Below are positions 3,038-57,804 of a DNA stretch of 57,804 bases, piece by piece. The notes under the pieces were generated by a model, which searched no databases, had not been told where the DNA came from, and was given only the letters and a program-made list of their open reading frames with translations. Made by a program: the position numbers and the translations under genes. Within the stretch, counting starts at the first letter, position 1. Each line of letters starts with the position of its first letter. Origin of the DNA: a virus; the IMG/VR virus record IMGVR_UViG_3300045988_015817; one strand, written 5' to 3'.

Positions 3038-3128
3038 CGAAAAATGAAAGGAGATGCAAACGGGATATGAACCCGCATCTCTGGTATAGGGTATACCAGT
3101 GCACTGCTATTGTGCTACTACGCATCTC
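3038..3128 (-). ncRNA. Structured, cloverleaf-like leader or small RNA (~80 nt) ending in a U-tract; not a canonical tRNA by eye
   Basis: A closing helix GAGATGC/GCATCTC (3122..3128 with 3051..3057) encloses three hairpins: GCAC..GTGC, TGGTATA-CCC-TATACCA and CGGG-TTCATAT-CCCG. It is followed by UUUCAUUUUU and starts at the predicted TSS of promoter 3131..3159. Confidence 0.3.
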
Positions 3129-3130
3129 TT

Positions 3131-3159
3131 CTCATTATAAGCTTTGTTTTTTATGCGAG
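3131..3159 (-). promoter_or_regulatory. Promoter-like motif copy a (TCGCA-N14-TATAATGAG family)
   Basis: Minus strand reads ctcgcataaaaaacaaagctTATAATgag, immediately after the stop of the 3160..3426 gene. Confidence 0.5.
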
Positions 3160-6111: not shown

Positions 6112-7080
6112 TCATCTCTGTGATACTTCGCCGTAAATGCAGCCATCACAGTTGAAGTCGATCAGTAATGTTCTCTCATTTTCACCAGTTTCCTCATTCG
6201 GAATCATAACCCACTTGGTCAGGAATGTTACATTGTTGTCGAACTTACCATAGTCCGGATCTTTCTGGCTTCTGTATCTCCAACCATGAGTAAGACCAAT
6301 ATCAGTAGGCTTCAGACCGATCATACGGTATACGTCGTTCAGTGTCAGGATTCCTTCGCATTTTAACCGTGTGTCTGCTTCCTTCTCACGCTGTGCGAGC
6401 ATGAACTCATTCTGAGGATTGTCGTTGAACCACTCAGTAGAGTTCTCACGTGTGAAGAGTCGTGCATATGGTGAACCGCCGAAGTTTCTAATGATCTCCT
6501 GCTCTTCAGTTACTTTCTTCTTTTCACCTGTCTCTGGATCTGTCTCAGTCTTCTTGACTGTTTTCTTTTCAGAACCATATAACATTTCTTTGTCAACTTC
6601 CTCACCATATTTGTTGATTACATTCTGACGGTAAGTCTTATAAGCCTGAGCAATTGCCGCACAGGATGCTGCTAATGCTGCCTGACGCTGTTTCATAATG
6701 TGATGAGATCCAAGAATGAGTCCGATAGATACTGTCTCGAGAATTACAGGACCTGCATAAAGCTTGATATACTCTAATACTGTTTTACGCTGTAACAGAA
6801 CCATATCGTTTGCTGCAGTCTCTCTTGTGTACGGCTTATTGAGGGAATCCGGATCTTCTTCGTACATTGCTGCTTTTTCTGCAATATTCTTTTTGATAGC
6901 TTCTTCATTTGCCTTTACTTCTGACACTTTAAGTGTAGCTCTCTGTGTCATGATCAGAGCTCCAATACCTGCTCCGATTCCTGCAAATAACATGATTTCT
7001 GGTGAGTTCATTTTGGTCCAGGCCTTAGTATGACCTACTACTGTTGATAAACTTGTTACTGCTGTGTCTAATGCTTTCAT
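6112..7080 (-). CDS. Membrane-anchored protein, member 1 of a three-member paralog family (322 aa)
   Basis: Start moved to MKALDT (AGGAGG SD). Has an N-terminal TM helix and a layout and C-terminal G-W motif shared with 10212..11042 and 11058..11903. Confidence 0.8.
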   Translation of the reverse strand: MKALDTAVTSLSTVVGHTKAWTKMNSPEIMLFAGIGAGIGALIMTQRATLKVSEVKANEEAIKKNIAEKAAMYEEDPDSLNKPYTRETAANDMVLLQRKTVLEYIKLYAGPVILETVSIGLILGSHHIMKQRQAALAASCAAIAQAYKTYRQNVINKYGEEVDKEMLYGSEKKTVKKTETDPETGEKKKVTEEQEIIRNFGGSPYARLFTRENSTEWFNDNPQNEFMLAQREKEADTRLKCEGILTLNDVYRMIGLKPTDIGLTHGWRYRSQKDPDYGKFDNNVTFLTKWVMIPNEETGENERTLLIDFNCDGCIYGEVSQR

Positions 7081-7081
7081 T

Positions 7082-8695
7082 TTATTTTCCTCCTTGTAAA
7101 TCAATAATAAACTCTAATGCATACTTTCCTGCTTCGTCAGTAATGTGGAATCCCTTAAAGACCTCATTCCACGGTATAGTTACTGATAAGTTATCGTCCT
7201 CTTTAGAGAACATAAACTTTGTCTCTTCCAGAATATCCCGAATTGAGAATCTATGGCTGTTGTAGCTAAGATATCTAAAGAACTTGATAGCGAATGTGTC
7301 TCTGCCGCCTTTATCGTCGAACAGAAGTTTCGTACATGTTCCTTCTGGCATATCTGTAGAATAGTATACTTCTACACTTCCCCAAACTGTAGACTTGTAT
7401 AAGTTGCATTTATCACTCGTAGCCTGCATCTCTTCTAATGTGTCTAATGCATCCTTCTTGTAAACTAAATCCAAGAAATATTTATCTTTTATAGAACGCA
7501 GTCTAAACTTTGCAAAGAGATCTTTCCATGGAAGCTCAGTACTGAAATTGTCTGTGCCATCTGGATCAATGAAATTTGTATCAGCCAAAACATCTCTAAT
7601 AGAGAATTTATTTTTCTTGAACTTGTTAAAGAAGTTGCTAATAAACATGTCTCTAACCAGTTCACTCGTAAATGCAATTGTGACACATGTTCCTGGATAC
7701 ATCTGAGTAGAATAGTACACTTCTGCATGTCCAGAAATCTTTGACTCATAGATAACACATGGACCATGTTCAGTCTTGATTTCTTTTGGGGGCTTTGAAT
7801 TGGAATTTTTGTAATAGAATACTAATGCAAAATTTCCATCTTTTTTAGTTAATGCAAAGCTTGTAAAGATGTCCTTCCACTGGACTTTTTTCGAGAAACA
7901 ATCAGCTGCTTCTGACAGAGGTACAGAGATATCGGATAAAACATCTCTGATAGAAAACGGCTTATAATCGGTGCTTGTAAGCCTTTTAAAGAAGCTATCA
8001 GAGAATCGTTTTCTAGCAGCTCTGCTGTCAAACATAATTGTTGTACATGCGCCAGGATACATGTTTGCAGAATGATATACTTCTACATGTCCGAGATCAT
8101 TTGATTCGTATATAACACACGAATCTTGTGTTTTGTAGTTGAATATCAATTCATACTTGCCATCATCTTCATTAATAGATAAGTTATCAAGAACTCTATC
8201 CCAGTATACAAGCTCGTCCCATTTGTTCCACTTGTTACCTTTTGTGATTTTGAATTTCATCTCTAATGCGGCATCTGCAATAGAAAACTCAGTATATCCT
8301 TCGCTAATTATATTGTAAACTACGCTCTGGAATTCTTCTGCAGCGTCCCTAGATTCGAAAACTAACTTTGACGGCATCCCATTCGGTTCCTTGGATTTTG
8401 CAAAGATTGTCATGTTGCCATACTCATTGGAAAACCATGTATCCCACAGGATCTCTTTATTGCCTGTATCCTGAGTTGATGCTATATCATCGATAAGGTA
8501 CTGAAGATAATTTTGTGCTTTCTTCAGATCCTCTACGCCGTTTTTTTTCTGGAATCTGAACAAATACTTCATAGTATTCCATAGCATTGCGGCCTGCTTT
8601 CCTGGCAGGTCCTTAACCACATCATTCAGAATATCAATAGCTTCGACCCCAGCAATATTCTGATAATGCTCTGGATGATTTACATTGTTTGACAT
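7082..8695 (-). CDS. DUF3310-like N-terminal domain followed by four ~110-aa internal repeats (537 aa)
   Basis: The N-terminus NHPEHYQ..GVEAIDI matches the DUF3310 signature as I remember it. Repeated blocks of the form C(V/N)(I/L)Y(E/K)S..G..EVY(H/Y)S..M..G.C...FSIRD(V/I)L. Confidence 0.8.
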   Translation of the reverse strand: MSNNVNHPEHYQNIAGVEAIDILNDVVKDLPGKQAAMLWNTMKYLFRFQKKNGVEDLKKAQNYLQYLIDDIASTQDTGNKEILWDTWFSNEYGNMTIFAKSKEPNGMPSKLVFESRDAAEEFQSVVYNIISEGYTEFSIADAALEMKFKITKGNKWNKWDELVYWDRVLDNLSINEDDGKYELIFNYKTQDSCVIYESNDLGHVEVYHSANMYPGACTTIMFDSRAARKRFSDSFFKRLTSTDYKPFSIRDVLSDISVPLSEAADCFSKKVQWKDIFTSFALTKKDGNFALVFYYKNSNSKPPKEIKTEHGPCVIYESKISGHAEVYYSTQMYPGTCVTIAFTSELVRDMFISNFFNKFKKNKFSIRDVLADTNFIDPDGTDNFSTELPWKDLFAKFRLRSIKDKYFLDLVYKKDALDTLEEMQATSDKCNLYKSTVWGSVEVYYSTDMPEGTCTKLLFDDKGGRDTFAIKFFRYLSYNSHRFSIRDILEETKFMFSKEDDNLSVTIPWNEVFKGFHITDEAGKYALEFIIDLQGGK

Positions 8696-9778: not shown

Positions 9779-9816
9779 AGAAAAAAGTCTAAGACCATGT
9801 TTCCATGATCCCAGAC
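9779..9816 (-). terminator. Rho-independent terminator
   Basis: Minus RNA folds as GUCUGG-GAUCAUG-GAAA-CAUGGUC-UUAGAC followed by UUUUUUCUU. Related to the terminators at 12213 and 14118. Confidence 0.6.
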
Positions 9817-10181: not shown

Positions 10182-10210
10182 CTCATTATAATATATGATT
10201 TTTTTGCGAG
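10182..10210 (-). promoter_or_regulatory. Promoter-like motif copy b
   Basis: Minus strand reads ctcgcaaaaaaatcatatatTATAATgag, upstream of the 9843..10148 gene. Confidence 0.5.
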
Positions 10211-11924: not shown

Positions 11925-12200
11925 TTAATTCTTTGTTTCGTTATACACCGGATGCTTAATTGCGAAATCCGACAGTATTTTAAGAAACTCTGGATTATCT
12001 GAATTTTCAACAATTAACTGATCCCAGCAAGCATTGACTCCGATTTGGTATGCATTATTTGCTCTAGCATCACTGATTGCAACAAAACTGCTTCCTATAA
12101 GCTTACCGAATGTAAAGCAACCAACTAAGAATAACCCATTCTCAATTATGCCTTTGTTATCGTGTACGAATCTCTTTACAGCGTTTACTTTCTTTTTCAT
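11925..12200 (-). CDS. Small membrane protein (91 aa), paralog of 12259..12534
   Basis: KxFVHDxK..hydrophobic helix..N(A/C)C(W/Y)..(V/I)NEN..NPE(F/V)LK aligns with the neighbouring gene. Confidence 0.75.
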   Translation of the reverse strand: MKKKVNAVKRFVHDNKGIIENGLFLVGCFTFGKLIGSSFVAISDARANNAYQIGVNACWDQLIVENSDNPEFLKILSDFAIKHPVYNETKN

Positions 12201-12212
12201 TTTGACTCCTTT

Positions 12213-12245
12213 CTAGAAAAGCTTAAAGGCCATGTTTCCATAGCC
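12213..12245 (-). terminator. Rho-independent terminator (part of a 55-nt repeat)
   Basis: Minus RNA folds as GGCUAUG-GAAA-CAUGGCC followed by UUUAAGCUUUUCU. Confidence 0.6.
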
Positions 12246-12258
12246 TCTAGCCGATCAC

Positions 12259-12566: not shown

Positions 12567-12595
12567 CTCATTATAATACATGATTTATTTGCGAT
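12567..12595 (-). promoter_or_regulatory. Promoter-like motif copy c
   Basis: Minus strand reads atcgcaaataaatcatgtatTATAATgag. Confidence 0.5.
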
Positions 12596-13783: not shown

Positions 13784-14105
13784 TCTCTTTTCTCCCTTTA
13801 GCTTCATTGTATTCTATTGGAGTTGCAGACCAGCAATACCAATTGTCTTGTACACGCCGACCAGCATGAACTCTACAATCTCCTGCACCATGATTATATT
13901 TATCTGGTTTGTATCTCTCGCAATAAGACACACAGTCTTTGCAGAAACATTTTGCTGTAGGACCTCCTTTGAACCTACTTTTAAGCTTCTTCTGGTACCT
14001 ACGGTTTTCTGCTGCTTCCTTAGCGAGTGCGGTAAGTACTGCTATTACTGCTACTACAATTATAAATACTGATATTACACCAATACTTGCAAATATCTTA
14101 ATCAT
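13767..14105 (-). CDS. Membrane-anchored Cys-rich protein (112 aa)
   Basis: N-terminal TM helix followed by CFCKDCVSYC..DC..YCW; SD-led. Confidence 0.75.
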   Translation of the reverse strand: MIKIFASIGVISVFIIVVAVIAVLTALAKEAAENRRYQKKLKSRFKGGPTAKCFCKDCVSYCERYKPDKYNHGAGDCRVHAGRRVQDNWYCWSATPIEYNEAKGRKEIEEGR

Positions 14106-14117
14106 TTTGACTCCTTC

Positions 14118-14150
14118 CTAGAAAAGCTTAAAGGCCATGTTTCCATAGCC
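14118..14150 (-). terminator. Rho-independent terminator (second copy of the 55-nt repeat)
   Basis: Hairpin and U-tract identical to 12213..12245. Confidence 0.6.
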
Positions 14151-14170
14151 TCTAGCCTTAACTTTTGTTC

Positions 14171-14629: not shown

Positions 14630-14658
14630 CTCATTATAAGCCTTGTTTTATTTGCGTT
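14630..14658 (-). promoter_or_regulatory. Promoter-like motif copy d (the -10 element overlaps the stop codon of 14634..14876)
   Basis: Minus strand reads aacgcaaataaaacaaggctTATAATgag. Confidence 0.45.
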
Positions 14659-16252: not shown

Positions 16253-16283
16253 CTCATTATAGTACATGAGATTTTTTTGCGAG
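16253..16283 (-). promoter_or_regulatory. Promoter-like motif copy e (16-nt spacer)
   Basis: Minus strand reads ctcgcaaaaaaatctcatgtacTATAATgag. Confidence 0.5.
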
Positions 16284-16387: not shown

Positions 16388-16416
16388 CTCATTATAAGAA
16401 TTGAATTTTTTGCGAG
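16388..16416 (-). promoter_or_regulatory. Promoter-like motif copy f
   Basis: Minus strand reads ctcgcaaaaaattcaattctTATAATgag, nearly identical to copy h. Confidence 0.5.
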
Positions 16417-16608: not shown

Positions 16609-16637
16609 CTCATTATAATATATGAAATATTTGCGAA
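16609..16637 (-). promoter_or_regulatory. Promoter-like motif copy g
   Basis: Minus strand reads ttcgcaaatatttcatatatTATAATgag. Confidence 0.5.
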
Positions 16638-16916: not shown

Positions 16917-16945
16917 TTCATTATAAGAATTGAATTTTTTGCGAG
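16917..16945 (-). promoter_or_regulatory. Promoter-like motif copy h
   Basis: Minus strand reads ctcgcaaaaaattcaattctTATAATgaa. Confidence 0.5.
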
Positions 16946-22748: not shown

Positions 22749-24188
22749 TTATGCTTTGATATTAAAATGTAATTCGCTATAATATGTATTAGCGAATGTC
22801 GCTAATGGCTTTCCCTTGTTAATCTTTAGCTTATATGTTGGATAAACTGGAACAAGATACCAATCATTTTTGCTATCTAATTTTATAGTCGGTTCGTTGG
22901 CACTCATTTTGGAAGGGTCAAGCAATGAATCATGTTCATTAATAAATGTTATTGCTGTGTCGCCCAGATTTGTTTTCTGATTTAAAATCGTTAAACCATC
23001 AATATTAAAATTATAATATGTTCCTTTTCTAGTTACGCTTACAGATTTAGCAGTTACTAAATCGGTGTCAACTAAATAAGTCCATTCACCATTGGCAATC
23101 AGATCTACTGTTGGGTCCTGAACTCCACCTTGGACTACAGCTCCAAATGCTTGAGCTTGACATGTACCAGTACACGTTGCTGAGCAGGTAGTAGCACATG
23201 CGTTTTTACATTGTCCACTGCATTCATTACTACAACCATCACATCCCGAACCACAACCAGAACAACCGCTACATCCTCCAGAACAACCGCTACATCCTCC
23301 AGAACAACCAGAACAGCCTTGACATCCTGTTGTACATGCTGATTCACATGATCCTTCGCACCCACTACAATTACTAAAGCAACCAGCGTCACAAGACCCA
23401 TCACAGCCAGCATAGCACCCATCGCAATTGCCTCCGCATCCACTTGATCCAGAACATCCTCCACAAGATGAACATGAAGAACACGAACTAGCACAGCCAG
23501 TGCAACTATAGCATGTGGCACAAGCCGAACCTTTTCCTTTCGATGAACACGAACTAGAACAAGATCCTCCGCATCCGGCGCATCCTGAGCATCCTTCACA
23601 TGATCCCGAGCACCCACTGCACCCACTGCACGATTTCCCACACCCTTCACAAGATCCAGAACATCCTCCTTGGCATCCACTGCTACACCCTATGCAACCA
23701 GAGCAAGAATTACACCCGCCGCAATTTCCACTACATCCACCACAACCACTAGAGCCACTACCTCCAGATCCACCAGATCCGCTACATCCGCCAGAACAGC
23801 TACTACAACCACTACATGTATTACCACACGTCCCTACACATAGTCCAGAGCATGCTCCACGACATGAAGAGGTAGCCCCATCGATTGGCTCTTTAGACAA
23901 CGAGTCAGTGTAAGATAGTAATTCGTTGTTAAATGATGACGGAATCTTAGCGCCTGTCTTAAGATCGACAGTATTCAAATTGCCATGATCTTTAATGTTC
24001 AACAAAGGCTCGATTACTTTTTTACCTTGGTCTGCTGTGACTTTGGTTCCAGATGTAGGAGTTGTGGAGAAGTCGTACGATGCAGATGCGAACCCAGTCA
24101 TAGAACCATTGTATGCTCTACGTTGCATTTCAGTTTTTACCTTGGCTTTAAGAGTGTTCATTTCTGCCGCGGTAAGAAAATTAGGCAT
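22749..24188 (-). CDS. Cys/Gly/Ser-repeat protein with globular N- and C-terminal domains (putative fibre-like structural protein and rSAM substrate, 479 aa)
   Basis: Track start (GTG 24197) moved to ATG 24188 (AAGGAGG SD). The central ~235 aa contains about 62 Cys spaced Cx2C/Cx3C. The C-terminus is beta-rich. Confidence 0.85.
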   Translation of the reverse strand: MPNFLTAAEMNTLKAKVKTEMQRRAYNGSMTGFASASYDFSTTPTSGTKVTADQGKKVIEPLLNIKDHGNLNTVDLKTGAKIPSSFNNELLSYTDSLSKEPIDGATSSCRGACSGLCVGTCGNTCSGCSSCSGGCSGSGGSGGSGSSGCGGCSGNCGGCNSCSGCIGCSSGCQGGCSGSCEGCGKSCSGCSGCSGSCEGCSGCAGCGGSCSSSCSSKGKGSACATCYSCTGCASSCSSCSSCGGCSGSSGCGGNCDGCYAGCDGSCDAGCFSNCSGCEGSCESACTTGCQGCSGCSGGCSGCSGGCSGCSGCGSGCDGCSNECSGQCKNACATTCSATCTGTCQAQAFGAVVQGGVQDPTVDLIANGEWTYLVDTDLVTAKSVSVTRKGTYYNFNIDGLTILNQKTNLGDTAITFINEHDSLLDPSKMSANEPTIKLDSKNDWYLVPVYPTYKLKINKGKPLATFANTYYSELHFNIKA

Positions 24189-24320
24189 TATCTTCACCCT
24201 CCTTTTTAAAAAACTTTATTTGATTTTTCCTCCCGGGGATTTTTTGTATTTCGTTTTTCTTTATCTTTTGTAAAGCGATCAAATCCTGATAAATACATTA
24301 CATAATACCCCCATTTTGAA

Positions 24321-44976: not shown

Positions 44977-45390
44977 CTAAATTACTTTATTTGTATATTC
45001 GAATGCTTTTTCAAGAGATTTAGATCCTATAAAATCTGCTGCGGAATTTACTGCTTTTCCATTAATATAATTGATACCTCTGTCGAATGCTTTTTCTATA
45101 TATGGTTTTGCTTTTGCTGTTGCAACTGATGTGATTAAAACGCCAGCTGTTTTTGCAATTGTTTTTCCTTGTTTTTTCATTTTTGAAATTTTACTTGGGT
45201 TGTTTTTTAAATATTCTCTTTCGAGATTTGATCGTCGATTTGCGGCTATCAATTCCTGGTCAGTCATACTCTTGACTTTTGTTTTTACCGATTCCGATCT
45301 TAAACTTTGTTTCGGATCTTTGCCAGAACCCCAAGGATATCGACCAGAATGACGTTTAGTTCCATAATGAGCTAAGTAGTCATTATTCAT
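44977..45390 (-). CDS. Hypothetical head-module protein sharing an N-terminal YLAHYGT.RHSGRYPWGSG motif with the RNAP-like protein (137 aa)
   Basis: Start moved to MNNDYLAHYG (AGGAAAGAG SD). Basic middle section and a hydrophobic segment. Confidence 0.7.
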   Translation of the reverse strand: MNNDYLAHYGTKRHSGRYPWGSGKDPKQSLRSESVKTKVKSMTDQELIAANRRSNLEREYLKNNPSKISKMKKQGKTIAKTAGVLITSVATAKAKPYIEKAFDRGINYINGKAVNSAADFIGSKSLEKAFEYTNKVI

Positions 45391-45757
45391 TTTGTCTCTT
45401 TCCTTTCTCATCATCAGCTGAAACAGGATAGTACATTATATACAATCTCCATTCCATTTCCTTAAGTTGCTCTTTTAAACTATCCATTAACGAACCACTT
45501 GTTGGTGGGTCGAATAACAGACGAGTTTTGATGTACACATAATCTTTTATCAAACTTGACTTCTGAGTGTCCTCTTCGAATTCACTCCAGACATTATCTG
45601 GACCAGTGATTCGGTATCCTTCTTTCGGACCAACTCCTAATTGAGTGAGAGCTGCAAATGCAGAATTGATATGAATGGTTAAATCCAAGTCAAACTGCTC
45701 AAAGTCGTCAGGACATCCAATAAGCTGCTTGATAGTCTTAAGAATGCTCTCTTCCAT
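45383..45757 (-). CDS. gp6-like head-tail connector / DNA-packaging protein (124 aa)
   Basis: Start moved to MEESILK (GAGGAGG SD). ILKTIKQLIG..FDLDL..HINSAF..LTQLGVGP..YVYIKTRLLFDPP..EMEWRL resembles the Phage_connect_1 family. Confidence 0.65.
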   Translation of the reverse strand: MEESILKTIKQLIGCPDDFEQFDLDLTIHINSAFAALTQLGVGPKEGYRITGPDNVWSEFEEDTQKSSLIKDYVYIKTRLLFDPPTSGSLMDSLKEQLKEMEWRLYIMYYPVSADDEKGKRQNE

Positions 45758-46519: not shown

Positions 46520-46872
46520 ATACTTTTGTCTCCTTTCCAATATCTTTTGCCGAGATGTTGAATACTTTACGTACTCTCTATAAGAGATCTAGGTATGTTT
46601 TAATAACCCTGAAAGGAGTCTTCAACTGAAAGAGGGCCCTTCTATGTGCGACAAAAGAAGACCAAGATCCCTTATAGAGAGGGCGTAAAGCTGTCAATCT
46701 AAAATCCATTTTGACAGGATTTTGACCCCCGGAGAATTTTTAAGGAGGCCGGCGATGACGAAGGGGGTGCTATTTTGACGACCCCCCCGGGGTGCTTGCT
46801 GAGACGTGCGAACGCTATAGTGAGTCCTTCGTGCTTGCGAAAGCTCTAAAACGTTCGAATCTCAGCAATTGT

Positions 46873-47214
46873 TTACTTGTTACTATGAATCTTTGGCTTG
46901 GTTTCACCATTAACACGAGTTACTTTGAAATACTGTCCCATAAAATCATTCTTGAGAATCTTGTCAATAGCAATCGATAAGAGTGCTTCATATGTTTCGT
47001 CACTCATGTCCGATGTATCAACATCAAAGTATCTCGCCAAATACCCTGAAGTGCAATAACCTTTGGACTCGTCGAATCTGTACCAATTGTCGAAGTCATC
47101 AAAAGGATCAAAGGGGTTGTCTACTGTTGTGATCCAGATATGCAATGTATCTTTGGAATCAGTAGGACTTTGTGTAGCTAACTTCAGAGATCCGCCGTCT
47201 TTTGAATTTCTCAT
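46873..47214 (-). CDS. Hypothetical acidic protein (113 aa)
   Basis: SD-led track ORF. Confidence 0.75.
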   Translation of the reverse strand: MRNSKDGGSLKLATQSPTDSKDTLHIWITTVDNPFDPFDDFDNWYRFDESKGYCTSGYLARYFDVDTSDMSDETYEALLSIAIDKILKNDFMGQYFKVTRVNGETKPKIHSNK

Positions 47215-47230: not shown

Positions 47231-49930
47231 CTATAAATATTTGTTGACAGTTGATACAGAAAGTCCAGTTGCTTCAGCTACTTCGGCTTGCGTATAACCA
47301 AAGTTAAGCATAGACTTTATCCTTGCTGCTTGAGAAGCACTAACAGTAACTGTATTCTTCGGCGATGCAAGCTGCTTTACTCTGTCTGAATCAGCATTGT
47401 TAAGTATTTGTGTAAGCTTTGATGTGCTGACAGCACCAGCTTGAATTGCAGCCCATTCTCTGTCTGTGATGTCAACTTGTACATTAGACTTAGAAGCACC
47501 AACCTTTGCTCTAGCTGCAGTTAAAGCCTGCTGACCAGCTCGTTTGATCTCATCTGCTGTCCAATCTGGATTAGCTGCCTGCTTCTGCTTTAATGTCTTA
47601 TTAGCAATGATCTGTGCCTGTCTCTCTTTTGGTGCATTCTGTAATGCTCTATTTAGCTTAGCATTAAGACTAGCTACTTCTGCTGCATATACTTTCTTTG
47701 CCTGTGCATTTGTTTCAATATTCTTAGTAGCTACAAGATTCTTTCGTGCTATGTTTGCCATGGATTTAAGGGAGTTGGCATAGTCCGCATAGGCAACCTC
47801 TTTAGGATTAGGGTTCTTCGACAGTAATGTACGGGCATCATTTGTAGCTGCCATCTTAGAGGTCTTGACAGTTGCAACTTTCTCACCTTTAGATTCCCAT
47901 ACCCCGTCTTTATTTCTTTTCCAGTCCGTATAGGTACGCCCCGTAGGCTCCAGATGTACTTCACCAGTCTTAGGATCAATGTCCTTCAAACGAATCTGTT
48001 TTGTTTCAGGAACATAGGCTACTGATTTAGCCCGGGAGAGTAGGGTGGATGCACCTGCATCACTACTACCCTGGTACTTCTTCTTAAGTTCAGCAATACG
48101 GTTTTCCTCGTAGGACCTCTTATAGTCCAAGCCGTGCTTCGGTGCGTCAATAACGACCATCGAATGCCGTACAGCTCTTGCAATTTCATCAGGCTTTGCA
48201 CCCTTCAATGTCATATCAGTAATCAGGTTGGAGATCTTACCCATTTCCAAACCTTTACGTTTCTCTGGGAGTTTTGCTGTAACTCCTTCAACACCACGAT
48301 ACACAATCTTAGGATCGAAGTCCTTAAGACCAGTGTATTCACTAATGTCAGATGTAGTAATCTTAACTTTAGATCTCGGTGAATTAGAAGGAATAACTAC
48401 TGCTGTATCTCCATCAAAGTCAGCTCCTGACAATCTTTCTGCAACCTTAGCATTGATACCAACTGCATCGATCGCATTGCCAAGCATAGACTTTCCTTGA
48501 GGATTCTTATTGTTTACTTTAAGCTCAGGTATCTCGAATGTTCCTCCATGAGGGAATCGAACAAGACACACAGTTTCACCATTCTTGTATGATGGTGCAT
48601 AGATCTCGTTATCCTTCAAAGAAGATACAGGTAAGATTACCTTTGCACTCTGTCTTGGAAGTGCTGCTGCTTTAAGATCTACTGCCTGGCTGTTGCAACC
48701 TTCGGCAAAGTCCGCAAGCAGTTTACGCTTAACAACAGGGTTTGTCATTTTGAGGATCTTATCAAGCTCATCCTGTCTATTATCAATTGATAACTTAAGC
48801 TGCTTCTTAATCAATGGGAGCTGCTGTTTTGATAGGAACTGAGAAGCAAGGTTCTTAGAATAGTGGTCCCAATCGCCTTCTTCCTTAAGCTTGTTGATAG
48901 CTCCTAATTTTGTGTTGCCATCTTTATCTTTGTAATGGTACTGTCCATTCGCTTTGATTGTTGCTCCAAACGGGTTGTCTGGATCGTCTTTCATCTTTTT
49001 GAAGACGTCCATCTTTGGTACATCACTTGTTTTGTTGGTATTGAACACAACATCCACACCTTTTGGCATGTTGTCCGAGTAGATTGCCATACCTTTAAGG
49101 TAGTGTGTTCCATCGACAGCGATTCTTACCTGTGCATAATGTGAGTCGCCAAGGTCAAGGTCAGCAATTCCTCTTCGAAGCTCAATGACTCCATCTTTCT
49201 CCAGTCCACCTTTGTCGCCGTATCTTACAGCAACACGGCTTGATGAAATACTTGATGGGTATTCAGGAGCCCAGAATGTTTCTCCACCATCATGAGAATA
49301 CTCTTCCAATGGCTGGATTCTTTCAGTATGCTGCTGTACATCTTTCCATTCAGTTCCTGGAGGGCAAAGGACTTTAGTAGTCGTATATTGCCCTTTTTGG
49401 TTGATCTGTGGAACTTTGACTGAATGCACTTCATAACCTGCTTCTTTTAAGATCTGCAGAGATACATCCAATCTTGTTTTGGTGATACCGATTTCTCTTT
49501 CAACACCGGTACCAACATCTACAAAGTTCTTAGTTCCAACTTTCTTTGCTAAAGCTTCAGCTGTGTTGATACATGTGTCTTCCTTAAGTTTTTCGCCTTG
49601 GTTCAGTAACGATCGAACTGTTGACTCTTTCGATGCTGAATTGAACATAAGCTCAGCTATTTTGACGTTAGAGTAGCCATGCTCTTTTAACTTCATAGCT
49701 CTGTTGATTCGATCAACTTTCTCAGCATTTACATAAATTGACTGCTTGTTTCGGAACTCAGTTGTTTTCAAGCCCATAGATGCAGCGATCTCTTTCTCGC
49801 TTTTACCTTTAGCTTTCATTTCCTTTACAGTCTTTAAGAAGTCTGCATTGTGCTGATAAGGGTTGTCTCCTGAACCCCAAGGATATCTCCCCGAATGCCG
49901 AGGAGTACCGTAGTGTGCTAAGTAGCTCAT
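47231..49930 (-). CDS. Putative single-polypeptide two-barrel RNA polymerase (YonO / RdRP-like) with terminal HTH regions (899 aa)
   Basis: VCLVRFPHGG..(40 aa)..LSGADFDGDTAVVI (DFDGD at 48407..48421) resembles the beta-prime/RdRP catalytic DPBB. Upstream RYGDKGGLEKDGVIEL resembles the beta-type DPBB. C-terminal HTH: GYTQAEVAEATGLSVSTVNKYL. Confidence 0.6.
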   Translation of the reverse strand: MSYLAHYGTPRHSGRYPWGSGDNPYQHNADFLKTVKEMKAKGKSEKEIAASMGLKTTEFRNKQSIYVNAEKVDRINRAMKLKEHGYSNVKIAELMFNSASKESTVRSLLNQGEKLKEDTCINTAEALAKKVGTKNFVDVGTGVEREIGITKTRLDVSLQILKEAGYEVHSVKVPQINQKGQYTTTKVLCPPGTEWKDVQQHTERIQPLEEYSHDGGETFWAPEYPSSISSSRVAVRYGDKGGLEKDGVIELRRGIADLDLGDSHYAQVRIAVDGTHYLKGMAIYSDNMPKGVDVVFNTNKTSDVPKMDVFKKMKDDPDNPFGATIKANGQYHYKDKDGNTKLGAINKLKEEGDWDHYSKNLASQFLSKQQLPLIKKQLKLSIDNRQDELDKILKMTNPVVKRKLLADFAEGCNSQAVDLKAAALPRQSAKVILPVSSLKDNEIYAPSYKNGETVCLVRFPHGGTFEIPELKVNNKNPQGKSMLGNAIDAVGINAKVAERLSGADFDGDTAVVIPSNSPRSKVKITTSDISEYTGLKDFDPKIVYRGVEGVTAKLPEKRKGLEMGKISNLITDMTLKGAKPDEIARAVRHSMVVIDAPKHGLDYKRSYEENRIAELKKKYQGSSDAGASTLLSRAKSVAYVPETKQIRLKDIDPKTGEVHLEPTGRTYTDWKRNKDGVWESKGEKVATVKTSKMAATNDARTLLSKNPNPKEVAYADYANSLKSMANIARKNLVATKNIETNAQAKKVYAAEVASLNAKLNRALQNAPKERQAQIIANKTLKQKQAANPDWTADEIKRAGQQALTAARAKVGASKSNVQVDITDREWAAIQAGAVSTSKLTQILNNADSDRVKQLASPKNTVTVSASQAARIKSMLNFGYTQAEVAEATGLSVSTVNKYL

Positions 49931-50493
49931 TCTATGCCCTCCTCTTTCTTAACGGATACGATAATCTTGTCGAATGACTTGATCTTGTCCATAATTGGCA
50001 GTATGATGTCCGGTGTAGGAATCTCTTTAAGAATCTCATTATTTTGATAGATCCTTAACTCGATCCCAATATCTCCAGGTTTGATTCCATACTCTAAGCA
50101 GAACAGTGCAGTATAGATTTCCAACTGCTGCATGTGTGCAGGAATGTCACCTGTTTTCAAATCATGAATTCTAAGAAAGTCTTTAGCAAACTTAATTGCG
50201 TCTGCTGTGCCGAAACAATTCTCAGAATAATATAACACCTGCTCTGGTGTCATTCTATATCCAATTGCATCATTGACATGCATGTTAAGTGTTAAAGGTG
50301 ATCTTGGCAATCTCTGTCTAAGCTTAATACATTTTGCTGCAAACTCATGTAACTCTGTACCTTGTCGAGCTTTCAGAAATCTGCGATATGTGTGTTCAAG
50401 TTTCTCGGAATCGTAGTTTAGCCAATGATAGGAGCTAGCCCCGAGATATGCGTGATCTCCTTCTTTTACTTGTGAATGTTTCCTGAATTCCAT
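49927..50493 (-). CDS. PD-(D/E)XK (RecB/Cas4-like) nuclease (188 aa)
   Basis: Start moved to MEFRKH (AGGAGG SD). Motifs GTADAI .. IHDLKTG .. QQLEIY (QxxxY). Confidence 0.6.
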   Translation of the reverse strand: MEFRKHSQVKEGDHAYLGASSYHWLNYDSEKLEHTYRRFLKARQGTELHEFAAKCIKLRQRLPRSPLTLNMHVNDAIGYRMTPEQVLYYSENCFGTADAIKFAKDFLRIHDLKTGDIPAHMQQLEIYTALFCLEYGIKPGDIGIELRIYQNNEILKEIPTPDIILPIMDKIKSFDKIIVSVKKEEGIE

Positions 50494-50761
50494 TATAAAC
50501 CTCCTGCTTATTTTGCGGATAGATGAAACTTCCATATTGTCCCATTTCATTCGCTTTATTTACATAATAATCCTGGTTGGGTCTGTGACTTGCTTCGGCA
50601 TCTCTTTTAACTTCGAGTAATGCCCAGCCATCTCTATCCAATAAAACCAAATCAGGAATCCCCTGTTTGTAGTTAGGGTCGTTCTTTAAAATAATAGAAT
50701 CTGGAAATAACTCATTTAATTCTGAAATTATATCAGATTGAATTTTGTTTTCTTTTTTCAT
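50435..50761 (-). CDS. VRR-NUC domain nuclease (108 aa)
   Basis: Start moved to MKKENK (AAAGGAG SD). Contains GIPDLVLL..WALLEVK...NQ. Confidence 0.65.
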   Translation of the reverse strand: MKKENKIQSDIISELNELFPDSIILKNDPNYKQGIPDLVLLDRDGWALLEVKRDAEASHRPNQDYYVNKANEMGQYGSFIYPQNKQEVYNGIQETFTSKRRRSRISRG

Positions 50762-50842
50762 TGTTCTCCTTTCGTAGGGCCGGAGGTAAACGTAATGGCA
50801 GATTGTATTTTTAATAAGGAGGTAATACAACAAATTCAAAAG

Positions 50843-51055
50843 AGCCCCACGAAAAGGACAAACAAAAAGAGAAAGAGACTGTTACGCTCTCCTCCCCTAT
50901 AATAATCAATGTTTTTTCGCGAGGCTTTTTCGTAAGAATATTAAACAGCTACAGAACTTTAATTAAATAAAGCCCTACGAAAAGGCCAAACAAAAAGAGA
51001 AAGAGGCGCTCACACTCTCCTCCCCTATAATAATCTATGTTTTTTTCGCGAGGCT
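50843..51055. repeat. Two tandem ~85-nt copies (50843..50926 and 50971..51055, period 128 nt), each carrying a variant promoter-like motif
   Basis: Direct comparison shows agcccc/tacgaaaagg.caaacaaaaagagaaagag....ctctcctcccctataataatc.atgtttttt(t)cgcgaggct in both copies. Confidence 0.8.
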
Positions 51056-52732: not shown

Positions 52733-55700
52733 CTATGCTGCCATATCGGTATGTTCATCAATTGCAAATTTCTCAAAGTCACCAAACTCTGATATAGTTT
52801 CTATTGCTTTATTAGCAAGTTCCTCATAATAAGACATGTCAATCTTATCCTGAATATTGTTTGTTATTACATCTTCAGATTCGAGCCAACGGTACCCCTT
52901 TGTTCCAGATGGTGCAAAGTACTTATCGTCTTTTACTCTGAATAACTGAGCTCCACCGCAGCCTTCTTGGATTGGGCAGAACTGACCAACTTTACCAACG
53001 AACTTATAGTCGTGTTCGTCTTCTGCCAGATTCTCGTTAAAGTCGAGGTCAAGCTCTCCACCATTGCTGACGGCGATTGTCTGACATAAGTCATTGAATT
53101 CAATCTTTTCATGAGTGAAGAGTTTCTTGAATACATATGGTACTGCGAACTGAGTTCCAGTTGCCGTCCACCCTTCGCCTTTCTCATATGCAATGTAGAC
53201 TGCATTGTTTACTAAGCAGATTTTCTCATACTCAGCTTCGATCTCGAATGTATATCCATACTTCTTTCCGAAGTCATAGATGAACTGCTCAACTTCCGGT
53301 GTCGGATTATCGATTTTGATTGAATCGGTCTTGATGTGAACGACGTGTGCTCCAAGTTTCTCAACTTCGCTTTTAAGTGTTGCCATGAAGAGTGCTCCAC
53401 GTTTAGCAACGATGTTGTCGATGTTTCTTTCATCCTTGAACAGATTACTGAAGTGAGCTGATGTCAGTCCATATACAGAGTTAATTACAATCTTCAGAGC
53501 CTTAGCAAGTTTGTCGAGTTCTTCCTTAGCAAGATTAGCAAACCGAGCAAATGCTCCGCCGAACAGAGTCTTTAATGCTTCAACGTCACGATGCTTAATA
53601 GCAATGCGAGCATCAACAAGATCTTTAAATCTCGCGGTATACTTCTTACCAAACAGATTAAGCGCGATTACAGAATGTGGATGCATAGATGCTACATCAA
53701 ATGTTTTGACATTTCTGTACATTCCAGGATCAGCAATTACCAATCCACCCTCATTAAGTTTGATGTCACGATACGTTGATACACCATGATCAAACTTGTA
53801 TCCTTTGAACTCATTGATCGGATTGTAGGTTTCATTACCATCCATATCAACAGAGATTCCTGTAGACAGATCAGTATATACAAACTCTCGCTGTGGATTC
53901 TTGTCTTTTCCAAAGATCAGTTTACCAGACAACATGTTGTTTGTATCGTTTGGACATCCGCCAGCAATTTCAGCTAAGACACATCTTGCTTCAAAGTCTT
54001 CAATGTTAGCTTCAAATGTAGCTTCTGTTGCAATGACATCATTGTCACAATACTCAGCAACCTTAGGCCACAGTTCTTCTGGTACTGGCTGATCCCAAGG
54101 CAATGCCCATTCCTGATGATGAATACCTAACTCGATTTCCCACTTCTTCAGACTCTGCTTCTTAGCACAGAAGTCATAAACATCTGTATAGCTTAAGTTG
54201 TATGCCGATCCGAAGAAAGCATTTGGACTCTTGTTAATAATGTCTTGTGAGAGCTGGAATAAAGCTTCCAATGAATATCCCATCATTCGAGCATACAGAA
54301 TGTGGTTATCATATCTTCGACAGTTGAATCCAACAAGTTTCATTTTGAGGAACTCTTCAACTTCTGTCGGTGATGGATTGATCATCCTCTTACAAGGTCC
54401 AGGTTCTCCTCTGTATTTCCAGTTAACCAATAACAGGTTTGGAAACACCTCAATATCATAGAATACAATCCTGTCATCTTTTGGATTGTCAACTCCTGCA
54501 ACATCATCAGAACAGTAATGAATCTTTCCAACCTGCTCTAGACAATAGTCTGCATGGTTTGTACTTGATGCTGCGAATGCTACAATATCATTGCGCATGT
54601 CTGTTACGTCGTAGTGCTCGCCTGACTCATATGCATCGTCAAGAATCTTTTTAATAAAGTCTACACTTGGTTTTGTACCAGGATGACTCTCTTTCCGAAG
54701 ATTCTTTTTGATCAATGCTCGAATCATCTTTTCGCTGGCAACTACTTTAAAGTCTACCATATTTTCACTCCTTTTCTTTAACGGTAACCCTGAAGATATA
54801 GTAGCAATTGGAGTTGAGTTACATGCTGTTACAACTCTTCGCAATGCTCCTTTACCACTATAAACCTTGATCTCTATATTGTCGCTATATACATTGTCAA
54901 GTTGTTTAGGGTCACCAGTATAATAGTAATGCAGATGCACACCTGCGCCACTCTTTGAGAACTCAGCATATGTTGACGGCCATTGAGATGCCGCGTCTAA
55001 GTTCATTTCCTTAGACTTATTCCCTTCAGCATCTTTTAGATCAAAGTCAATGACTATTAAATTCTCTGGAACTCTAACATAGTGAAGTTTAGTAGTATCC
55101 AGATCCTTCAATGTTGTACCAACTCGATCCCACGCTTTTGATGGCGCATCGCCGCGTGCATATTGTGCTGGGCAATCTTTACACACTTCATCTAAGATAG
55201 ATTTAGTGCTATCCATTTTGAGCCATGATTCTTTGGCTTCGTCTGGCTTAAGCTCTTTGTCTACGAACTTATCTTTCTTGAAGCCTTTGTAATAGCTTCT
55301 AGCTCTTGTTCCATCTTCCAAAGTAATTCTGTCGAGAAACTCATCGAAGTAATCTTTCAAGTCTTCCCTGAATTTGTACATTGGCATTTTGTTTGGGAGC
55401 CCAGTGTTGTCGCAATACTCTTTATACAGACTATATGCTGCTTTTAATGTTGTTCCATCATCCTTCTCAAAGAACGGATAACAGCTTTCTACGAAGTTGA
55501 AGAAGACGTCCGTTTTGAACATCATATCCAATGGCTTATATCCATCGTAGTAATGCTTTCCGTATTTCTGGTATACTTTGAGACAATGATTAGCTATAGC
55601 TCCAAGCTCATATGGAATCTGACTCATGCATTCCTGGTAAGTATCTGGCTCGAGTAATTCGCCAGTTGGCTTAACATCAATCAGTCGTCTTATAATACCT

Positions 55701-56563
55701 GACTTTGCATCAGTGATTTTGACTGGTCGGTTTGTACCCATGAATAGCATACTGTTAACTCGCATTGGATACTCAGCTTTATACTTTTCAGAAATGCCGA
55801 TTTCCTCGTGTGCGATTATAGAGTTGAGAAGGGTGTTATCTTCAATTCTACTTAAGTCACCGTCATGTTGAATCATTACCAGAGGGTTATCTTTGAATGC
55901 GGCAGTCGCGAATGATTTTGACGGAGTAGCTAAGTCTTTAGCATTGAATGTTCCGCAATATCCTTCGAACAGCTTTTGGATGATGTTAAGGATTGTCGAC
56001 TTACCTGTTCCAGCTTCACCATAGAAGACTAAAAACTTCTGAATCTTTTTAGAGTCACCAGATATAACTGATCCAATGGCCCACTCGATCTTTCGTCGTT
56101 CTTCTGCATCATACAGAGTTGAGATGATTTTGTCATAGCCCGGTGTCTTGCCTGCTTTGATGTCGTATGGTAAGGTCTTGGAACGATAGTCCTCTTTGGT
56201 TGTCTTCTGGTTTAGGAATGTAATATCAGAATCTAACTGTATTGAAGACGACGGACTAAGCTGGCAATACTTCTTGTACTTTTCCCAGCGTCCATTGTCG
56301 AAGTCCCTTAAGTAGTCTTTTTCGATTTTGCTGGTTGTGGTCTTGCTAACTGTTTCATATACTTCATCGATCAAACGATCTACATAATCAACAACATCGT
56401 ATTCATCAGTAGACCATCTGTTATTCTTCTCATCCCAGAGAGCATAGAACGCCTTACCTTTACATAACAGGTTATCAACTTTCTTAGAAACAGCAAACGT
56501 TGGGTGAATGACCGTGGCATCCCTAGACTTGACATATGAACTCTTAATTGTTACAAAATTCAT
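52733..56563 (-). CDS. Fused replicase: D5/VirE-type SF3 helicase NTPase + prim-pol domain + family-B DNA polymerase (1276 aa)
   Basis: Start moved to MNFVTIK (AGGAAAGGA SD). Motifs GEAGTGKST; VIDFDLKD and GAGVHLHYYY; FYDIEVFPN and YCDNDV (exonuclease); DVASMHPHS, KIVINSVYG and IKTDSI (PolB motifs A, B, C). Confidence 0.85.
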   Translation of the reverse strand: MNFVTIKSSYVKSRDATVIHPTFAVSKKVDNLLCKGKAFYALWDEKNNRWSTDEYDVVDYVDRLIDEVYETVSKTTTSKIEKDYLRDFDNGRWEKYKKYCQLSPSSSIQLDSDITFLNQKTTKEDYRSKTLPYDIKAGKTPGYDKIISTLYDAEERRKIEWAIGSVISGDSKKIQKFLVFYGEAGTGKSTILNIIQKLFEGYCGTFNAKDLATPSKSFATAAFKDNPLVMIQHDGDLSRIEDNTLLNSIIAHEEIGISEKYKAEYPMRVNSMLFMGTNRPVKITDAKSGIIRRLIDVKPTGELLEPDTYQECMSQIPYELGAIANHCLKVYQKYGKHYYDGYKPLDMMFKTDVFFNFVESCYPFFEKDDGTTLKAAYSLYKEYCDNTGLPNKMPMYKFREDLKDYFDEFLDRITLEDGTRARSYYKGFKKDKFVDKELKPDEAKESWLKMDSTKSILDEVCKDCPAQYARGDAPSKAWDRVGTTLKDLDTTKLHYVRVPENLIVIDFDLKDAEGNKSKEMNLDAASQWPSTYAEFSKSGAGVHLHYYYTGDPKQLDNVYSDNIEIKVYSGKGALRRVVTACNSTPIATISSGLPLKKRSENMVDFKVVASEKMIRALIKKNLRKESHPGTKPSVDFIKKILDDAYESGEHYDVTDMRNDIVAFAASSTNHADYCLEQVGKIHYCSDDVAGVDNPKDDRIVFYDIEVFPNLLLVNWKYRGEPGPCKRMINPSPTEVEEFLKMKLVGFNCRRYDNHILYARMMGYSLEALFQLSQDIINKSPNAFFGSAYNLSYTDVYDFCAKKQSLKKWEIELGIHHQEWALPWDQPVPEELWPKVAEYCDNDVIATEATFEANIEDFEARCVLAEIAGGCPNDTNNMLSGKLIFGKDKNPQREFVYTDLSTGISVDMDGNETYNPINEFKGYKFDHGVSTYRDIKLNEGGLVIADPGMYRNVKTFDVASMHPHSVIALNLFGKKYTARFKDLVDARIAIKHRDVEALKTLFGGAFARFANLAKEELDKLAKALKIVINSVYGLTSAHFSNLFKDERNIDNIVAKRGALFMATLKSEVEKLGAHVVHIKTDSIKIDNPTPEVEQFIYDFGKKYGYTFEIEAEYEKICLVNNAVYIAYEKGEGWTATGTQFAVPYVFKKLFTHEKIEFNDLCQTIAVSNGGELDLDFNENLAEDEHDYKFVGKVGQFCPIQEGCGGAQLFRVKDDKYFAPSGTKGYRWLESEDVITNNIQDKIDMSYYEELANKAIETISEFGDFEKFAIDEHTDMAA

Positions 56564-56741
56564 ACTTTTTCCTTTCCTGACCGTTTGGACACAAAAATGT
56601 GCTCTCAAAAACTTTTATATATTTTCATACTTTCCTAAAAAGTTTTTAAACTATATAAAAAATGGGCTTTTGGCCAATAATAGGGTAAAATAGCACTAAA
56701 AAGCCACTTTTTCATCAATTTTTGCAACTTGCTGGCCATTT

Positions 56742-57707: not shown

Positions 57708-57804
57708 CCTCGCTCCTTCCTACATCTTTAACCCAATCGATCTCTCCTGCAGCAAACGCATAAGCAATAGCATCGATAACGTCAATAGCTGAATCAGAGA
57801 ATAC
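57697..57804 (-). CDS. 3' part of the junction-spanning 87-aa hypothetical protein (same gene as 1..211)
   Basis: The frame continues from the duplicated 55 nt to TAA at 57697..57699 (...AFAAGEIDWVKDVGRSEDDD). Confidence 0.6.
   Translation of the reverse strand, partial: VFSDSAIDVIDAIAYAFAAGEIDWVKDVGRSEDDD
57750..57804. repeat. Second copy of the 55-nt terminal overlap
   Basis: Identical to 1..55. Confidence 0.95.

Follow-up and report, generated by a model that had tools for sequence, protein, structure and literature searches.

The stretch of DNA analysed here (the window) comprises 57,804 nucleotides (nt) of viral DNA, IMG/VR virus record IMGVR_UViG_3300045988_015817, and represents a complete phage genome of about 57.75 kb assembled as a circle, its two ends (1-55 and 57750-57804) being identical over 55 nt. 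Nearly all of its genes are carried on the minus strand, on which the protein domains and motif copies given below also lie. Among these genes is an open reading frame (ORF) of 899 amino acids (aa) at 47231-49930 with an ATG start, whose existence is confirmed here and which an earlier sequence-only reading had reported as a candidate RNA polymerase. We describe evidence that this ORF probably encodes a single-chain RNA polymerase with two double-psi beta-barrels, flanked by helix-turn-helix (HTH) modules, and that phages carrying such a gene share a promoter-like motif. The database protein nearest to the ORF (85% identity) comes from a Lachnospiraceae metagenome bin and the G+C content of the window is about 39%; because of these two slender clues, the host of the phage is probably, if tentatively, a gut Firmicute.

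The 899-aa protein matches the family phrog_4291 over nearly its whole length (E = 0, 1197.5 bits), its residues 3-899 aligning with positions 11-905 of the 909 in the profile. This family, which is the 'phage 1706-like' family, carries the name 'RNA-dependent RNA polymerase' (RdRP). Full-length relatives, 39-51% identical, were detected by tblastn in 250 phage records, with Arthrobacter, Gordonia, Streptomyces, Lactococcus, Microbacterium, Rhodococcus, Curtobacterium and Faecalibacterium as hosts; the usual annotation in these records is 'helix-turn-helix DNA-binding domain protein', with 'RNA-dependent RNA polymerase' in some. A large protein database holds at least 8,000 matches to the protein, many of them from gut metagenomes. 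The 'phage 1706' group was recognised in silico as one of five YonO-like families by Ruprich-Robert and Thuriaux in 2010 (PMC2919709), and Koert et al. in 2021 described the HTH/RdRP protein as a signature of a supercluster of actinophages and Lactococcus and Faecalibacterium phages, reporting an HHpred match to Pfam RdRP with a probability of 95.7%, a DxDGD motif and HTH domains in the N- and C-terminal parts (bioRxiv 10.1101/842583). The window protein is a new member of this published family, itself predicted in silico, and not a new class.

Residue conservation was assessed in 46 non-redundant metagenomic homologs (39-73% identity) and six isolate sequences from two phyla, 52 in all, and an AlphaFold2 model built from the 46 homologs (predicted local distance difference test score, pLDDT, 83.1; predicted template modelling score, pTM, 0.71) contains two beta-rich modules. 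In this model a disordered N-terminus (aa 1-24) is followed by an all-helical region with two HTH-like modules (aa 28-134; 49529-49849) and by a small alpha/beta domain (aa 136-200; 49331-49525) that is possibly a winged helix, with a weak HTH_5 match at residues 145-166. The first predicted double-psi beta-barrel (aa ~230-352; 48875-49243), placed by the alignments and by a model of this region alone, holds the invariant D246-G, Q267-V-R269, K279-G, NTNK300 and K311. It is separated by a long helical hairpin (aa 363-418; 48677-48844), seen in the model's secondary structure, from the second (aa 428-514; 48389-48649), placed by alignments and fold matches, which holds R458-x-P460-HGG and the metal-binding loop. 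Within this six-strand module the SGADFDGD catalytic loop (aa 501-508; 48407-48430), which aligns with NADFDGD of Escherichia coli beta-prime and is invariant in all 52 sequences, lies between a helix and the last strand. Beyond barrel 2 come two conserved helices (aa 556-599: MGxISNLITDMT and ARAVRHSMVVIDAxKH; 48134-48265) that may form a bridge-helix region, then a beta domain (aa 637-691), long helices (aa 709-810) and a terminal helical bundle (aa 814-899) that includes the C-terminal HTH.

The sequence-only reading had quoted three segments, VCLVRFPHGG...SGADFDGDTAVVI, RYGDKGGLEKDGVIEL and GYTQAEVAEATGLSVSTVNKYL, and these are present at residues 453-513, 236-251 and 878-899, respectively. 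Its central motif, SGADFDGD, is no chance occurrence: S-G-A-D504-F-D506-G-D508 and R458-x-P460-H-G-G are invariant throughout the 46 homologs and the six isolates, as are, in the first barrel, D246-G247, Y-A-Q267-V-R269-I, H-Y-x-K279-G, F-N-T-N-K300 and K311 and, after the second, M-G564..S-N568-L-I..D-M-T574 and R585..H589..D595..K-H599. A set of these residues, invariant across phyla, matches the catalytic and product-binding residues of the RdRP QDE-1 in order and spacing. The landmarks of the window protein run D -21- QxR -10- K -21- K ... RxP -46- DxDGD, and those of QDE-1 (D709, Q736-x-R738, K743 and K767 in the first barrel) run D -27- QxR -5- K -24- K ... R -45- DxD (PMC9508822). The distance from the arginine to the first aspartate of the triad is 46 residues in the window protein, 45 in QDE-1, 43 in the SPbeta phage protein YonO and 35 in E. 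coli beta-prime. By this comparison D504, D506 and D508 together with D246 would correspond to the QDE-1 metal ligands, R458-x-P460 to its Pro-gate loop, and Q267-x-R269, K279 and K300 to its contacts with RNA and nucleoside triphosphate. At an overall identity of only about 40-50%, invariance of the triad, R-x-P, Q-x-R and the lysines is, as far as sequence can tell, the signature of a maintained active site.

One residue assignment of the sequence-only reading had to be replaced. It had placed a lysine-bearing motif of the beta-type barrel in RYGDKGGLEKDGVIEL, and this segment does lie 265 residues upstream of D504, but the lysine (K239 of RYGDKGG) is not conserved, being E in the other aligned sequences. 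The pairing of RYGDKGG with the GRHGNKG motif of beta was reproduced as the best local alignment, but it was matched or beaten by 34 of 300 shuffles, and it was rejected. The conserved residues of barrel 1 in the alignments are instead D246, Q267-x-R269, K279 and K300.

When the whole model was searched against the PDB, 47 of the 50 top matches listed were chains belonging to multisubunit RNA polymerase complexes (those of bacteria, vaccinia virus and African swine fever virus, ASFV, as well as Pol II and Pol IV), and the best of them were largest subunits. Among predicted viral structures the top match was a full-length phage 'RNA dependent RNA polymerase' (E = 9e-7), and several RlpA-type double-psi barrels were also found. 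Neither fold search, PDB or viral library, gave support for a TOPRIM or other fold for the DFDGD loop, which the model places in a beta-prime-like barrel. The Pfam RdRP family (PF05183) was matched by 37 of the 46 homologs scanned singly at E <= 0.1 (best E = 1.7e-4) and was the sole recurrent non-HTH Pfam family among them; in the window protein this match covers residues 495-605. Support for two double-psi barrels in the modelled protein is good but not conclusive, and the two modelled barrels, the RNA polymerase fold matches and the PHROG and Pfam assignments together support the proposal of a single-chain two-barrel RNA polymerase fused to HTH domains; none of the outcomes that the sequence-only reading had named as refuting it was observed.

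The HTH modules themselves are better defined at the C-terminus, where residues 865-899 (47234-47338) form an HTH resembling sigma-70 region 4 that passes Pfam cut-offs: Sigma70_r4_2 matches residues 877-899 with 29.3 bits (cut-off 25.7), HTH_7 and HTH_3 also exceed their gathering thresholds, and Sigma70_r4_2 is matched in all 46 family members. This match is limited to the HTH, so that, on the profile evidence, the protein is not a sigma factor. In the N-terminal region, which had also been anticipated as helical or HTH-like, there are weak matches to GerE (residues 35-56) and MerR (69-95), and residues 69-133 have a profile match to HTH-repeat and lambda cI repressor chains. The three modules have the common pattern G-(L/Y)-(S/T)-x3-I-A-x2-(M/L)-G. 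Sequence searches of PDB chains, whether with the protein itself or with profiles of the full family and of barrel 1, returned only HTH proteins or noise and no polymerase.

The relation to YonO is less direct than the label 'YonO-type' had implied. A BLASTP comparison was not significant (E = 0.44), with a top high-scoring segment pair that sets RFPH...DFDGD against RSPH...DNDGD, and hhalign with barrel 2 alone gave E = 0.007 (score 25, compared with 18 for the reversed control). Direct similarity to YonO is marginal (E 0.007-0.07). Judged by these comparisons, the family is a separate lineage of the RdRP/YonO-like branch, sister to YonO and not a close relative.

As the joint best explanation of these results we consider it likely that the ORF encodes an RNA polymerase of about 100 kDa, a single chain with two barrels in the RdRP/YonO-like branch and with HTH modules at both ends. 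Such an enzyme, by analogy with YonO and in the setting of a double-stranded DNA (dsDNA) phage, would copy DNA into RNA by two-metal catalysis with no host subunits. Several results weigh against this reading. The Pfam RdRP model gave the window protein itself 15.0 bits (E = 0.01), below the gathering score of 23.8. The E-values of the PDB fold search were weak (best 9.9e-3, none below 1e-3), and QDE-1, RDR2 and crAss gp66 were not among the 50 matches listed. A crop of residues 215-425, modelled alone (pLDDT 83.2), speaks for the first barrel in that it matched almost exclusively double-psi beta-barrel proteins in the PDB (formylmethanofuran dehydrogenase subunit D, barrel domains of dimethyl sulfoxide (DMSO) reductase and formate dehydrogenase, p97/NSF N-domains and kiwellin), with the two-barrel polymerase gp96 of phage P23-45 (PDB 8h2m) also among these weak matches, but every E was 0.24 or higher. 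The mapping onto QDE-1 follows residue order and spacing rather than superposition; hhalign of the 46-sequence family profile against a 33-sequence YonO profile gave only E = 0.07 and a probability of 0.8% over 125 columns, with no signal for barrel 1; and searchable literature yielded no biochemical or other experimental work on any member of the phrog_4291 family.

The polymerase gene is the third of a four-gene operon at the right end of the genome, beside a cos-like site. The first gene (50435-50839, start codon uncertain) encodes a VRR-Nuc-type endonuclease (phrog_93) and the second (49927-50550) a Cas4-like exonuclease (phrog_3953, E = 5.5e-74) whose stop overlaps the polymerase start; immediately downstream of the polymerase is a gene for a small partner of 113 aa (46873-47214; phrog_4303, E = 2e-24). 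The last of these is small and acidic, carries a DNPF-DPF...W..F...GY...YLAR motif and is always encoded next after the polymerase, whichever of the two phyla the phage belongs to (an equivalent was found in Secretariat, Correa, Rima, Count and the relatives L009 and L011); it is possibly an accessory factor. The same four-gene order closes the linear genomes of Correa, Secretariat, Rima and Count, and recurs in metagenomic relatives. Gene content confirms that the polymerase gene stands between replication genes (exonuclease, helicase, single-stranded DNA-binding protein and primase-polymerase) and head genes (HNH, connector, TerL and portal). The primase-polymerase, a fusion of a primase/D5-like NTPase with a family-B DNA polymerase (1291 aa, phrog_4210, 52733-56608), is conserved across the phage group. 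Downstream of the operon a gap of 332 nt precedes the head genes, and within it a G/C-rich block of about 65 nt (46726-46790; GGGGGGGTCG..CACCCCC..CATCGCCGGCCTCC..CCGGGGG) is conserved in L009 and L011, the sequence on either side having diverged. The core of this block, CATCGCCGGCCT, is similar to the sequence (...CATCGCCGCTCT) with which Gordonia phage Secretariat physically ends on the right, and the block is, by this resemblance, probably the cos site.

A promoter-like motif is repeated elsewhere in the genome. The motif CTCGCAAAAAAATCA-N5-TATAATGAGA occurs in eight copies in the window, compared with 0.04 expected, and has the form TCGCA-N6-TTACA-N5-TATAAT-GAGA (TCGCA..TCA/ACA-N5-TATAAT-GAGA in the window copies). 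A pattern search places these copies at 3132-3157 (a candidate cognate promoter), 10183-10208, 12568-12593, 14631-14656, 16254-16279, 16389-16414, 16610-16635 and 16918-16943, all on the coding strand and all within a module of small genes (3.1-16.9 kb). The motif stands 24-36 nt upstream of a start codon, and is often preceded by a hairpin and a T-run. Variant copies are found at 51027-51050 and 50899-50922 as part of a tandem duplication directly upstream of the endonuclease-exonuclease-polymerase operon, in which an 85-nt element (50833-50917 and 50961-51045) is repeated with 87% identity; each copy consists of a variant promoter-like box, a leader of two hairpins (-19.5 kcal/mol, z = -2.45) and a T-run, and the element may be an attenuator or a small RNA.

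Other elements were noted in the small-gene module. A hairpin, GGCCATGTTTCCATAGCC, followed by a ribosome-binding site, is repeated at 9782-9806, 12191-12252 and 14096-14157, two of the copies being 95% identical over 62 nt; these hairpins are probably terminators between gene cassettes. In Streptomyces phage Rima (L015) eleven copies of a hairpin, CCCGACCCCGCAAGGGGTTTGGGTTT, alternate with the promoter-like motif between positions 6636 and 14303, and the layout of terminator and promoter cassettes would thus also be conserved across phyla. An element at 3052-3126 scores 34.1 bits with the Rfam tRNA model (gathering score 29), but ARAGORN calls no tRNA there; it begins about 8 nt after one promoter-like TATAAT and was considered as a marker of transcription start, but given this disagreement it was not relied on.

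The motif is not peculiar to the window. In relatives, too, the top repeat family has this architecture: in Arthrobacter phage Correa it is TCGCGTAAATTACACGGGCTATAATGAGA in six copies, and copies number 11-12 in Rima, 9-10 in Lactococcus phage P078 and 9 in Secretariat. With one uniform search pattern, WCA-N4-Y-TATART-RR, and the shuffled mean as expectation, there were 9 sites in the window (0.45 expected), 6 in Correa (0.25), 11 in Rima (0.00), 10 in P078 (0.93) and 9 in Secretariat (0.05), and all sites in these five genomes were on the coding strand. The pattern had no site in the E. coli rpoBC control (shuffled mean 0.02) or in four phage control loci that have no tblastn match to the 899-aa protein at E <= 0.01, namely two of SPbeta (0.42-0.48), one of phiC31 and one of sk1. 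The consensus of 44 sites, tcgcA...atTACA.g.ccTATAATGAgA, has neither a -35 box at 17 nt nor a TG extension, in contrast to the early promoters of host type that are annotated in Lactococcus phage sk1 (TTGACA-N17-TATAAT). A copy precedes the polymerase operon in four of the eight genomes checked (the window, Correa, Secretariat and L009). In a viral contig collection, signature genes of the phage group lie within 14 kb or less in 24 of the 120 motif-bearing stretches listed, three of which have the polymerase itself. Koert et al. make no mention of promoters (bioRxiv 10.1101/842583), and promoter motifs in these phages were not found in the literature.

The motif has been kept across two phyla alongside a conserved polymerase bearing HTH modules, which suggests that the polymerase recognises it; from the sequences at hand, the chances that phrog_4291 polymerases do so seem to us about even. 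Against this proposal, the link between motif and polymerase is one of co-occurrence only, and the perfect TATAAT means that host sigma-A could use the motif. Promoters made up of a -10 box alone are, moreover, common in Actinobacteria. If the polymerase does recognise the motif, its own HTH modules would replace a sigma factor, and its targets would be the TCGCA-N6-TTACA-N5-TATAAT-GAGA elements, conserved in phages of Actinobacteria and Firmicutes, that stand before the small-gene module and before its own operon. The enzyme would then transcribe at an early or middle stage, with positive feedback, and would not be an enzyme of late genes.

The late role put forward in the sequence-only reading is not supported by these positions, and it enters the strongest of the competing explanations: host sigma-A would use the TATAAT motifs for expression of the small genes, the replication genes and the polymerase gene, and the phage enzyme would then transcribe the structural genes, which on circular or concatemeric DNA lie just downstream across the cos site. 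There is precedent in YonO, which is DNA-dependent, transcribes the late genes of SPbeta and is the only characterised bacterial relative (PMC5467207). The polymerase gene is the second to last before the cos-like block and the head genes, with one orientation throughout; and, besides the perfect -10 hexamer of the motif, the presence of the polymerase operon and the small genes behind the same motif class is what a single early host system would be expected to show. However, no separate repeated motif that could serve as a candidate late promoter was found upstream of the structural genes when the window repeats were searched for one, and the motif that was found keeps its TCGCA, TTACA and GAGA flanks across two phyla and has neither a -35 box nor a TG extension, an unusual make-up among the sigma-A promoters of Lactococcus. 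We therefore judge this division of labour unlikely, although it is the competitor that survives best.

A second set of observations concerns the first residues of the polymerase. Its N-terminal peptide YLAHYGTPRHSGRYPWGSGDNPYQ (aa 3-26; 49853-49924) is predicted to be disordered (pLDDT < 50), resembles DUF7211, and has residues H6, G8, R11 and S13-G21 invariant across phyla. The same peptide is carried by a 145-aa ORF (44977-45414, motif at 45307-45378) between the connector and TerL genes, where aa 13-36 are identical to the polymerase peptide at 20 of 24 positions (83%; BLASTP E = 2e-13); this ORF also matches phrog_4291 positions 5-83 (E = 9e-14), and the DNA of the two peptide regions is 79% identical over 57 nt. 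Pfam DUF7211 gives no match for the polymerase and only E = 0.076 for the 145-aa ORF; the connection to DUF7211 is drawn because TerL-flanking genes of relatives carry its canonical form, LAHYGVxGMKWG. This form is present in Correa gp07 (two copies) and gp09 and in L009 proteins of 242 and 190 aa, and a 179-aa protein of L011 has a recorded Pfam DUF7211 match. A search of 1.84 billion representative proteins found 457 with the peptide, nearly always at the N-terminus, the carriers including small phage proteins and fusions to glutamine-deamidase toxin domains. Nothing was found in the literature on DUF7211.

The peptide is possibly a capsid-targeting or portal-binding signal, in which case the polymerase might be delivered by the virion. 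As in N4 vRNAP, crAss gp66 and P23-45 gp96, a packaged enzyme would be injected with the DNA and would start early transcription, the peptide serving as its packaging signal. An invariant disordered peptide common to proteins encoded beside TerL and portal (the 145-aa ORF and its counterparts in Correa, L009 and L011) is in keeping with this idea, as are candidate promoters that drive an early-looking module together with the polymerase operon, since some enzyme would then be needed at the outset. Yet host transcription of the genome end that enters first would serve equally well, the gene sits in the replication module and not in the structural one, the peptide belongs with a DUF family, and no virion proteomics of relatives was found in the literature. 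Packaging appears to us doubtful, less probable even than the late role.

A role on RNA templates or in replication, as a true RdRP or as an enzyme that forms primers or R-loops at a replication origin, is improbable. The protein does have the Q-x-R signature of QDE-1-type RdRPs, where Pol II has lysine, it bears the database name RdRP, its gene is grouped with those for exonuclease, helicase, single-stranded DNA-binding protein and primase-polymerase, and QDE-1 itself accepts both DNA and RNA templates (PMC9508822). But YonO is also Q-x-R and nevertheless DNA-dependent, the genome already encodes a primase-polymerase fusion, a dsDNA phage offers no evident RNA template, and a protein with three or four HTH modules would be expected to recognise double-stranded DNA. 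Least probable is an HTH DNA-binding regulator with an inactive, polymerase-like relic for a core, which would agree with most GenBank records ('helix-turn-helix DNA-binding domain protein') and with the HTH-only matches above Pfam thresholds, but not with a triad, R-x-P, Q-x-R and lysines that stay invariant between Firmicute and Actinobacterial phages at about 40-50% identity.

Two other repeat regions of the window were noted. On the plus strand, 23230-23865 is densely filled with short repeats of 9- and 21-nt periodicity (CCAGAACAACC...); the region lies inside a 482-aa minus-strand ORF (22749-24197) downstream of the tail genes and is assumed to be a repetitive protein segment. A 537-aa ORF at 7082-8695 contains three internal direct repeats with a period of about 355 nt (7222-8106), which suggests a protein of repeated domains.

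If the polymerase reading, the promoter-like motif and the N-terminal peptide are combined, the protein would be a self-sufficient, sigma-independent polymerase whose HTH modules read a three-part promoter (a TCGCA box, a TTACA box and a TATAAT-like box) kept in phages of Actinobacteria and Firmicutes alike and whose DUF7211-like peptide packages it into the capsid, so that it is injected for early transcription and then amplifies its own operon. All of this together is rather unlikely, more so than packaging taken alone. Were it true, this would be the first two-barrel phage polymerase with promoter, built-in specificity domains and packaging signal all defined. What is new here are two leads, the promoter-like motif and the peptide common to the polymerase and terminase-adjacent proteins. 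Single-chain two-barrel polymerases are regarded as present-day models of the ancestor from which all cellular RNA polymerases derive, and studies so far have, to our knowledge, covered only YonO, RdRPs of the QDE-1 type and a few virion enzymes. The present family is abundant and has cultivable members in phages of Arthrobacter, Gordonia, Streptomyces and Lactococcus, and with HTH modules of its own and a promoter-like element that co-occurs with it across phyla, promoter recognition by a minimal two-barrel polymerase becomes directly testable in existing phages. A compact orthogonal transcription system is also suggested.

Comparison with known systems places the protein among several kinds of two-barrel enzyme. 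YonO is likewise a phage-encoded single chain of about 100 kDa, and the two have a common order of motifs (Q-x-R, R-x-PH, D-x-DGD and G-x-ISN-x-IT): YonO has invariant Q150-I-R152 and R492-x-P494-H, and its NIGEISNNIT aligns with the G-x-ISN-x-IT of the window protein. Unlike the window protein, YonO lacks a Pfam HTH and has a cluster of four cysteines at its end, its barrels are 385 residues apart compared with 237, and the SPbeta loci are without the promoter-like motif. How YonO-like enzymes find their promoters is still unknown (PMC5467207). With QDE-1 and PF05183 there are in common the Q-x-R and the aspartate of barrel 1, the R-x-P loop 45-46 residues before the triad, and the weak, recurrent Pfam matches over the D-x-DGD region; QDE-1, however, is without HTH modules, and the window protein, set in a dsDNA phage, gives no evidence of slab, neck or head domains.

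The multisubunit beta and beta-prime (Rpb2 and Rpb1) chains provide the best PDB fold matches, with NADFDGD set against SGADFDGD and NRAPTLH against R-x-P, and when a hidden Markov model of the family was compared with E. coli beta and beta-prime, only its GADFDGD heptad was aligned, with beta-prime. In contrast to these subunits, the window protein would hold both barrels in one chain of 899 aa and has Q in place of the first barrel-1 lysine. The crAss-like gp66 and P23-45 gp96 are also single-chain two-barrel enzymes of phages, but they are far larger or fused to a tape-measure protein, and no sequence similarity to the window protein was detected. From its phrog_4291 (HTH-RdRP) relatives nothing essential sets it apart: domain order is the same, homology to isolates is full-length at 39-51% identity, and the four-gene operon stands in the same place at the right end of a siphophage genome of 54-60 kb. 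The window protein is a gut-metagenome member of this family, and the only difference noted in its phage is that the small ORF beside TerL carries the polymerase-type variant of the N-terminal peptide.

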